DNA from: a virus
Lineage: Duplodnaviria; Heunggongvirae; Uroviricota; Caudoviricetes
Length of the DNA: 25,044 bases
Virus record (IMG/VR): IMGVR_UViG_2529293240_000020
Location: 1 to 25,044 of that record
Strand: one strand, 5' to 3'
In this document: in pieces, positions 18,905-20,809 of the stretch
How positions within the stretch are numbered: position 1 is the stretch's first letter
Layout of the letters: each line of letters starts with the position of its first letter
The notes under the pieces: generated by a model
The model's input: only the letters and a program-made list of their open reading frames with translations
What the model was told of the DNA's origin: nothing
Database searches by the model: none
Made by a program: the position numbers and the translations under genes

Positions 18905-19217
18905 TATGTCCCCCCGGATTTAAAATTAATTCGGTGTTGAATAGCTCTTTACTCATTCGATGTAGCACATCGAGGGCGGCAACTGCCGCTACTTTATCCT
19001 GGCTGGCAATGATTTTTCGTAATTCCTCAATAATCCAGGCTGGACTTAATGATTCGGCAATCATCGTGCGTTTTTCTGAAATTAAATTTTCTCTGGCCTG
19101 CTCATAGCGTTGGTATACGACATTATCCAGAAAATCATTTACCTTTTGTTCTGACATGCCACTGGAAATTAAGGTTGCAGCCATTAAATCAGCATCAGTA
19201 ATCATCTGTATTTTCAT
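18882..19217 (-). CDS. Hypothetical early-region protein, 111 aa, AT-rich
   Basis: ATG at 19217; its first 23 nt overlap the reconstructed stop of the IS911-disrupted gene; its end overlaps the gemA-like start. Confidence 0.45.
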   Translation of the reverse strand: MKIQMITDADLMAATLISSGMSEQKVNDFLDNVVYQRYEQARENLISEKRTMIAESLSPAWIIEELRKIIASQDKVAAVAALDVLHRMSKELFNTELILNPGGHNELHIPD

Positions 19218-19301
19218 CTCTTAATACCTTTTCTGGATTCAGGAAAACTGCGCCGGTAACCTCCAGCAGATTCACCAGAGCATGGGTCGCAATTGCTGCA
19301 G
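19195..19301 (-). pseudogene. 3-prime fragment of an early gene disrupted by IS911 (reconstructed ~118-aa ORF)
   Basis: Removing IS911 and one CAG copy joins 20554..20809 to ..19301 in frame: ...NGDCLA/AAIATHALVNLLEVTGAVFLNPEKVLRDENTDDY*. Confidence 0.5.
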
Positions 19302-19373
19302 TGAAGTGGCACACTGAATTTGGCCACCTGAACAGAGGTGATATGCTCACCTCAGAACAACACAGGTGCTCCA

Positions 19374-19676
19374 ATGAAAAAAAGAAATTTTAGCGCAGAG
19401 TTTAAACGCGAATCCGCTCAACTGGTTGTTGACCAGAAATACACGGTGGCAGATGCCGCCAAAGCTATGGATGTTGGCCTTTCCACAATGACAAGATGGG
19501 TCAAACAACTGCGTGATGAGCGTCAGGGCAAAACACCAAAAGCCTCTCCGATAACACCAGAACAAATCGAAATACGTAAGCTGAGGAAAAAGCTACAACG
19601 CATTGAAATGGAGAATGAAATATTAAAAAAGGCTACCGCGCTCTTGATGTCAGACTCCCTGAACAGTTCTCGATAA
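19374..19676 (+). CDS. IS911 OrfA (HTH / leucine zipper), 100 aa
   Basis: ATG at 19374; the track ORF begins 12 codons upstream at a non-canonical start. Confidence 0.85.
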
Positions 19677-19702
19677 TCGGGAAACTCAGAGCGCATTATC
19701 CT

Positions 19703-20542
19703 GTGGTCACACTCTGCCATGTGTTCGGGGTTCATCGCAGCAGCTACAGATACTGGAAAAACCGTCCTGAAAAACCAGACGGCAGACGGGCTGTATTACG
19801 CAGTCAGGTACTTGAGCTACATGGCATCAGCCACGGTTCGGCCGGAGCAAGAAGCATCGCCACAATGGCAACCCGGAGAGGCTACCAGATGGGACGCTGG
19901 CTTGCTGGCAGGCTCATGAAAGAGCTGGGGCTGGTCAGCTGTCAGCAGCCGACTCACCGGTATAAACGTGGTGGTCATGAACATGTTGCTATCCCTAACT
20001 ACCTTGAAAGGCAGTTCGCCGTGACCGAGCCAAATCAGGTGTGGTGCGGTGATGTGACCTATATCTGGACGGGTAAGCGCTGGGCGTACCTCGCCGTTGT
20101 TCTCGACCTGTTCGCAAGAAAACCAGTGGGCTGGGCCATGTCGTTCTCGCCGGACAGCAGGCTCACCATGAAAGCGCTGGAAATGGCATGGGAAACCCGT
20201 GGTAAGCCCGGCGGGGTGATGTTCCACAGCGATCAGGGCAGTCATTATACGAGCAGGCAGTTCCGGCAGTTATTGTGGCGATATCAGATCAGACAGAGTA
20301 TGAGCCGGCGCGGAAACTGCTGGGATAACAGCCCAATGGAACGCTTCTTCAGGAGTCTGAAGAACGAATGGATGCCGGTGGTGGGTTACGTAAGCTTCAG
20401 CGAGGCAGCTCACGCCATAACGGACTATATCGTTGGATATTACAGCGCACTAAGACCGCACGAATATAACGGTGGGTTACCCCCAAACGAATCGGAAAAT
20501 CGATACTGGAAAAACTCTAACTCGGTGGCCAGTTTTTGTTGA
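19703..20542 (+). CDS. IS911 OrfB (DDE transposase catalytic domain), expressed as an OrfAB fusion by -1 frameshift
   Basis: IS3-family OrfB sequence with DDE region ([10 protein letters not shown]...), downstream of orfA in the -1 frame. Confidence 0.8.
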
Positions 20543-20550
20543 CCACTTCA

Positions 20551-20809
20551 CAGCCAGGCAATCACCGTTGTAGCAGGCATTGTCGATAACGCTTTTTATT
20601 ATTCTTATCAGCGATGGCAGTGTGGTGTTTTCCAGAATTTCCAGCCTGAACTGCTTCAGCCAGTATTCATATTCAGCTTCATCAAATGGACGCTCACCCA
20701 TCAGTTCCGTCAGTGTTGCATCGGCCTGCTCTGGCGTATATCCACTGACAACCAGTTGCGCCCGCATTTCAGCCCGATATTTCGGGTCGTCATAAATACG
20801 TTTACTCAT
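20551..20809 (-). pseudogene. 5-prime fragment (86 codons) of the early gene disrupted by IS911; the remaining 24 codons of track ORF 20477..20809 are read from the IS911 end
   Basis: ATG at 20809 overlaps the upstream stop (ATGAGTAA); the frame runs into the IS terminal repeat at 20550. Confidence 0.5.

Follow-up and report, generated by a model that had tools for sequence, protein, structure and literature searches.

What did an IS911 element strike when it entered the early region of a Mu-like prophage in Shigella flexneri J1713, a working phage operon or a prophage that was already dead? The DNA in question, hereafter the window, is the whole stretch of 25,044 nucleotides (nt) that was analysed, nt 1–25044 of AFOW01000037.1, and all coordinates refer to it unless another locus is named. 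Within it, a complete copy of the insertion sequence (IS) IS911 splits a 120-codon gene on the minus strand. We consider it very likely that an intact IS911 inserted into an orphan gene of an already dead Mu-like prophage and that the case is one of ordinary IS-driven decay.

Insertion of IS911 into a 120-codon gene

The element, its flanking duplication, and the two parts of the interrupted gene lie as follows.

19302..20550, plus strand: IS911 (IS3 family), complete copy of 1249 base pairs (bp), with transposase genes opposite in direction to the phage genes
19299..19301: target-site duplication, left copy, CAG
20551..20553: target-site duplication, right copy, CAG (a single copy in every empty site)
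20551..20809, minus strand: interrupted gene, 5' part (codons 1–86 plus 1 nt)
19195..19301, minus strand: interrupted gene, 3' part (codons 87–120 plus TGA stop)

The element extends from TGAAGTGGCACAC... at 19302 to ...GACCACTTCA at 20550, the limits given in the original prediction. Its assignment to IS911 was upheld, with 1249 of 1249 nt aligned at 99.8% identity to copies annotated by the Prokaryotic Genome Annotation Pipeline (PGAP) as 'IS3-like element IS911 family transposase'. A bare match of 3 bp on the two sides of an element has a chance of 1/64. In BLAST alignments with uninterrupted relatives, the segment 22284–20551 of the window stops at position 10259 of the relative's locus and the segment from window 19301 onward begins at 10257, so that the two flanks overlap by 3 nt. 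The empty site, with one CTG, reads GGCTGCAGC in ten loci that carry the exact allele (L004–L013) and likewise in L034, a contig described below; in Escherichia coli UMNF18 (L001) the site is uninterrupted and carries a variant base. The flanks are contiguous in all twelve of these relatives (L004–L013, L001, and L034). Given the overlap of 3 nt between the flanks and the single CTG in the empty sites, a 3-bp target duplication and a simple insertion are proven, and the CAG on either side of the element is the intact target duplication that it had been taken for.

In-silico excision of IS911 together with one CAG restored an open reading frame (ORF) of 363 nt and 120 codons on the minus strand, from the ATG at 20809 to the TGA at 19195–19197. 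A continuous frame had been predicted and was recovered; its length is 120 codons rather than the approximately 118 that had been proposed. The reconstructed protein is identical to P0002, a protein found on 74 contigs, with S. sonnei, S. flexneri, and S. boydii as its named sources, and the reconstructed gene aligns without gaps to a 363-nt coding sequence of E. coli UMNF18 (96.4% nucleotide identity, 117/120 amino acids). Excision and comparison with uninterrupted homologues, the checks suggested along with the original prediction, thus gave contiguous flanks and a conserved frame. The rebuilt gene also ends as predicted, with its stop overlapping the next ORF (ATG at 19217) by 23 nt, and the same 23-nt overlap is annotated by PGAP in E. 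coli UMNF18 (6001–6363 and 6341–6676). At its other end, the start of the rebuilt gene overlaps a preceding ORF of 60 amino acids by 8 nt, again in agreement with the annotated E. coli relative. In the present frame, the 5' part reads into IS911 and meets a stop at 20477, 74 nt into the element, which yields a product of 110 amino acids consisting of 86 native and 24 IS-encoded residues.

A prophage remnant and its relatives

Both ends of the phage DNA in the window are bounded or broken by further elements.

22166..22284, minus strand: gam remnant, last 119 nt (window 22284 corresponds to L004 position 8526, inside gam at 8120–8644)
22285..23052, minus strand: IS1, 768 bp (Pfam InsA and IS1 transposase; 99.9% identical to the IS1 of L005)
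23197..24438, minus strand: P4-type tyrosine integrase of the ssrA-linked island, 413 amino acids (Pfam Phage_integrase, Phage_int_M, and Arm-DNA-bind_3)
24643..25005, minus strand: ssrA, transfer-messenger RNA with the tag ANDENYALAA (ARAGORN)
2684..3946, minus strand: IS3-family element, 1263 bp, after codon 4 of the tape-measure gene, with ACC at 2681–2683 and 3947–3949
1..2360, plus strand: IS66-family element (Pfam), tnpC at 758–2359 with tnpB and tnpA nearer to position 1; the window, like the contig, opens within the element

This locus lacks the early promoter, the repressor gene c, ner, the DDE transposase gene A, the ATPase gene B, kil, and the greater part of gam; in the relatives L004–L008, c, ner, A, B, kil, and a complete gam all lie upstream. 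No target duplication surrounds IS1, whose flanks CCTTGTTGA and GAACTTCTG are unlike, and the boundary between IS1 and the gam remnant is a deletion or inversion junction and not an insertion. The window therefore holds the remnant of a Mu-like transposable prophage and not a complete one. Upstream of IS1, ssrA and the integrase gene form the usual start of an ssrA-linked island; the rest of the island has given way to IS1 and the Mu-like remnant.

At the other end, the 1263-bp element at 2684–3946, which we take to be IS600, is flanked by an ACC duplication that is backed by empty sites in L016, L017, and L021. This insertion in the tape-measure gene is common to S. flexneri 2850-71 (L018) and S. 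flexneri J17B (L020). The IS66-family element, which 2850-71 lacks, forms a second break in the tape-measure gene. A deletion of the late region at approximately 3947 was considered and found to be wrong, given that the tape-measure gene of J17B continues past the IS600 and IS66 elements; the rest of that gene and then the baseplate genes lie beyond them.

The closest of all relatives is L034, a contig from the Logan assembly of SRR6249424. It begins 27 nt inside IS1 at the identical junction between IS1 and gam, matches the window at 100% over the next 1761 nt (the gam side) and at 99.97% over the following 10.4 kilobases (kb; the gemA side). In it, the 120-codon gene is whole and the IS911 site unoccupied. 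Judging by its length, the contig should run out a few tens of bases inside the IS600 of the tape-measure gene. Because L034 shares the junction but has an empty IS911 site, the truncation of the left end reads as older than IS911, and because the tape-measure IS600 is shared with 2850-71 and reached by L034, so does the break in the tape-measure gene. In our reading of these loci, the loss of the left end and the disruption of the tape-measure gene by IS600 both predate the IS911 insertion.

S. flexneri J17B, of serotype 3a, has the same structure as the window in its complete chromosome (CP100042.1), and the truncated product of 110 amino acids is recorded on two contigs only, those of J1713 and J17B. 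A 1852-bp contig from another S. flexneri assembly (L025) extends precisely between IS1 and the IS911 site, which is what draft assemblies that break at both repeats should give. The IS911 insertion is confined to one small lineage rather than to a single isolate; it occurs in J1713, in J17B, and in two or more draft assemblies. This narrow record of the truncated product, together with the near-identity of the flanks to those of L034, bears out the earlier view that the insertion was probably recent, in relative terms.

Several further observations concern these genomes. Over 14.5 kb, the sole difference between J1713 and J17B is one gap of 1 nt; it may fall in the DUF2730 gene (approximately 15477–15806), which encodes 109 amino acids in J1713 and 101 in J17B and other relatives, and it may be an error of the draft assembly. 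Other S. flexneri copies of the same prophage (L005, which is UGYT01000001.1, L008, and L010; 99.8–100% identical) have decayed differently, with IS600 in the transposase gene A and, in some, IS1 between the early genes for proteins of 87 and 139 amino acids. The IS coordinates in L005 are 1934–3196 and 6622–7389, and draft contigs stop exactly at such IS sites. An IS911 beside a 'Gam family' gene in E. coli O121 (H28) was set aside as unrelated; it belongs to a Rac-like lambdoid prophage.

The inserted element and the interrupted gene

IS911 belongs to the IS3 group of the IS3 family and was first described in Shigella dysenteriae. Its length is 1250 bp, and it duplicates 3 bp (occasionally 4 bp) of its target. 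The features of the copy in the window are as follows.

19302..19337, plus strand: left terminal inverted repeat (TGAAGTGGCACACTGAATTTGGCCACC...), in which positions 1–8 and 20–27 pair perfectly
20515..20550, plus strand: right terminal inverted repeat (...GGTGGCCAGTTTTTGTTGACCACTTCA)
19374..19676, plus strand: orfA, 100 amino acids, HTH_Tnp_1 (PF01527, Pfam)
19625..19631, plus strand: A AAA AAG programmed −1 frameshift motif leading from orfA to orfB, in the orfA frame as A-AAA-AAG
19703..20542, plus strand: orfB frame, rve/DDE integrase core, expressed as the OrfAB fusion 19374–20542

The ends are of the 5'-TG...CA-3' type (TGAAGTGG... and ...CCACTTCA), and the terminal inverted repeats are imperfect, with 24 of the 36 outermost positions pairing. 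The called genes carry the Pfam domains PF00665 rve, PF13683 rve_3, HTH_21, and PF01527 HTH_Tnp_1. A −1 slip at the A6G motif gives an OrfAB of 389 amino acids without a stop, and PGAP marks a 'programmed frameshift' on a copy whose amino acids are identical to those of the OrfAB in the window. Among E. coli genomes, 1385 records match the element at 99% or more; the copy in E. coli EC28 differs by 2 nt and has identical OrfAB amino acids (WP_087880099.1). Given that orfA, the slippery motif, and the orfB frame are all intact, this copy looks functional and is apparently still competent for transposition. The right end contains a −35-like TTGACC, from which a hybrid promoter might point outward, but no properly spaced −10 element was found by eye, and such a promoter would face antisense to the phage genes.

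The reconstructed protein matches phrog_27371, a family listed with function unknown, from end to end (residues 1–120 against 1–120, E = 1.5e-79), and a Pfam search returned no match. A word-indexed protein search yielded nine clusters (at 90% identity), all from Escherichia or Shigella and all at least 87% identical. An exhaustive phmmer search over 1.84 billion representatives gave four hits, among them one credible distant relative of 103 amino acids with 36% identity. Another match, a protein of 3495 amino acids aligned in 14 stretches, was rejected as a repeat artefact of a repetitive adhesin-like protein. The rebuilt gene had no match in a DNA search of 50,697 phage records, and tblastn against the same records gave a single weak match, in Klebsiella phage Kp4866-3 (37% identity); by both methods, Mu, D108, and SfMu have no homologue of the gene.

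Comparison of the reconstructed gene with three E. coli alleles gave ratios of nonsynonymous to synonymous substitution rates (dN/dS) of 0.12–0.28, values that mark the 120-codon frame, at the level of sequence, as a real gene under purifying selection. The most conserved block of the protein, LAAAIAxxALVNL, straddles the IS911 insertion point; it is assigned to the 3' part of the interrupted gene and is thus cut off by the element from the remaining protein. An AlphaFold model of the protein comprised five helices (predicted local distance difference test score of 79), and a Foldseek search with this model against PDB gave no match below E = 1. The phrog_27371 protein is a narrow orphan with a predicted all-helical fold. 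That it has an early role, so far uncharacterised, in some subgroup of Mu-like phages, such as host takeover or anti-defence, we regard as very unlikely; if this were so, J17B, which carries the insertion, and the SRR6249424 strain, whose gene is intact in the same setting, would form a natural, near-isogenic knock-out pair. Elsewhere in the family, an E. coli protein of 82 amino acids (P0031) represents an allele of the 120-codon gene that is frameshifted after residue 60, a pseudogene that arose by another route in another lineage. In E. coli STEC383, a gene in the opposite orientation takes the place of the neighbour encoding 111 amino acids, and the 120-amino-acid family includes a shorter C-terminal variant of 111 amino acids.

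The genes around the insertion follow on the minus strand in the order ssrA, integrase, IS1, gam remnant, an ORF of 184 amino acids, the gp11-like gene, the 60-amino-acid ORF, the interrupted gene, the 111-amino-acid ORF, gemA, mor, and a terminator-like hairpin, and then the lysis, head, and tail genes.

20977..21516, minus strand: Mu gp11-like protein (Pfam Gp11_C, E = 1.1e-38)
20802..20984, minus strand: ORF of 60 amino acids, phrog_16556, upstream of the interrupted gene
18882..19217, minus strand: ORF of 111 amino acids, phrog_1988, next after the interrupted gene
18353..18904, minus strand: gemA (gp16) homologue (Pfam GemA, E = 1.9e-32)
17907..18356, minus strand: homologue of mor, the middle-operon activator (Pfam Mor, E = 4.3e-30)
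17881..17901, minus strand: hairpin and T-run directly past mor

The hairpin past mor is likely the terminator of the early operon, and the D108 and Mu records have a terminator annotated at the equivalent place. Genes for a Mu-type head and contractile tail are also present (Portal_Mu, Phage_Mu_F, Mu-like_Pro, Mu-like_gpT, sheath, tube, and Gp41_Mu). The Shigella prophage has, downstream of gam at 21520–22125, an ORF of 184–201 amino acids (phrog_2260) that the UMNF18 prophage (L001) lacks, a difference of 555 bp, and comparisons with UMNF18 and STEC383 indicate that the early region is mosaic.

Effect of the insertion and comparison with known systems

The course of events is then the following. 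An IS1-bounded rearrangement stripped everything upstream of the last 119 nt of gam, and IS600 split the tape-measure gene. IS911, which would have moved by a copy-out/paste-in route through a circular intermediate as known from the literature, landed in codon 87 of the phrog_27371 gene, between gam and gemA/mor in the semi-essential early region, and duplicated CAG. Its target on arrival was a prophage remnant already lacking promoter, transposase, and tail. The insertion cuts the protein after residue 86, appends the IS-encoded residues, and puts an antisense stretch of IS RNA, approximately 1.2 kb and largely untranslated, in front of the 111-amino-acid gene, gemA, and mor. With the early promoter gone, inactivation and polarity carry little biological weight; the effect of IS911 on phage biology is nil, and that on the host is most likely neutral. 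Were the 111-amino-acid ORF, gemA, and mor transcribed, IS911 would probably be polar on them.

The original prediction had the insertion inactivate one member of the early operon, taken here as a working one, and possibly exert polarity on the genes downstream. Such an event would resemble the laboratory X mutants of Mu, which are described below. The position of the gene between gam and gemA/mor, upstream of the terminator-like hairpin, is what such a reading would expect, its overlaps of 8 and 23 nt with its neighbours fit a tightly packed operon, and the truncated frame, in stopping 74 nt into the element, leaves approximately 1.2 kb of RNA largely untranslated. However, early promoter, repressor, ner, A, B, and kil are all missing from the locus, the break in the tape-measure gene was already in place, and L034 combines the same truncation with an empty IS911 site, which largely refutes the idea. 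The operon is also headless, with Mu homology starting only at 22284, 119 nt before the gam stop and directly against IS1. It is therefore very unlikely that IS911 disabled or attenuated an active prophage by breaking a functional operon with polar effects on gemA and mor, and neither part of that claim was sustained. Recombination between two IS911 copies might also have brought the flanks together, to leave a deletion or inversion junction instead of a simple insertion. This is a general option in IS-rich genomes, the adjacent IS1 being such a junction, but nothing specific favours it at this site, and it is already refuted by flanks that are exactly contiguous in the twelve relatives, with the 3-bp overlap accounted for as the duplication; its probability is negligible.

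A different possibility is that the insertion was selected. Read-through from IS1 or the integrase region after the IS1 event might have expressed a harmful 120-amino-acid protein together with gemA and mor, a cost that IS911 then relieved. The IS1 transposase genes and the integrase gene lie on the same strand as the phage genes, the insertion is found in at least four assemblies, and the purifying selection on the gene speaks for a protein that is active in functional phages. Nevertheless, strains of the L034 type tolerate an undamaged copy of the gene in this very setting, and Shigella carries IS insertions by the hundred that appear to be neutral (PMC7373316). We consider selection very unlikely indeed.

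Some points do weigh against our own account, insertion into an already dead remnant. The order of events assumes that L034 represents the state before insertion and not a revertant by precise excision. The element is 1249 bp long with an OrfAB of 389 amino acids, as are the matching E. coli copies, compared with the 1250 bp noted above and a transposase of 382 residues in the literature (PMC7780238). A prediction on the antisense strand of IS911 gave no strong intrinsic terminator, so that any polarity would be Rho-dependent. Finally, IS1 is codirectional with the phage genes; read-through is thus possible, and polarity of IS911 on gemA and mor is not strictly meaningless.

An intact target duplication and a gene that can be rebuilt do not by themselves show that the element struck a working unit; the verdict depends on the surroundings, here the missing promoter and transposase together with a relative that has the same truncation and an empty site. 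On this basis, the locus offers a clean and fully resolved example of stepwise prophage decay by IS elements in S. flexneri, in which the IS1 truncation and IS600 came first and IS911 later. The insertion could also serve to mark the lineage of J17B-like strains of serotype 3a.

The IS911 copy itself shares with known copies its TG...CA ends, imperfect repeats, orfA and orfB in 0/−1 phase, A6G site, DDE (rve) domain, and 3-bp duplication, and differs in nothing of substance beyond the small discrepancy in total length and OrfAB. Copy-out/paste-in transposition and target duplications are described for IS3-family elements in general (PMC7780238, PMC11708052). Every Shigella species shows an expansion of IS1, IS2, IS4, IS600, and IS911, and chromosomes carry 229–348 IS copies (PMC7373316). 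Three of these five expanded types, IS1, IS600, and IS911, are all found in this prophage, and its insertions differ between strains of one lineage, both in keeping with the IS-driven decay of Shigella genomes described by Hawkey et al. 2020 (PMC7373316); our case differs in that it concerns one specific site only. A word search of PMC7373316 and PMC10732043 found no mention of prophages in either.

As for the phage, the window and the UMNF18 prophage share with Mu the order gam, gp11-like gene, small ORFs, gemA, mor, terminator, lysis, head, and tail, and the portal, F, protease, capsid, sheath, and gp41 proteins of the Mu family are present in the window. Two differences stand out: Mu, D108, and SfMu have no homologue of the interrupted gene, and the copy in the window has no c, ner, A, B, or kil and is not a complete prophage. 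In the X mutants of Mu, IS1 in the early region makes the prophage defective, and such mutants were selected by survival of induction. The present locus resembles them in that an IS lies within the early part of a Mu-type prophage, ahead of genes required for lytic growth. In those mutants, however, the IS is the inactivating lesion, whereas here the prophage was inactive before IS911 arrived. The IS911 insertion is an ordinary case, of a kind already known.

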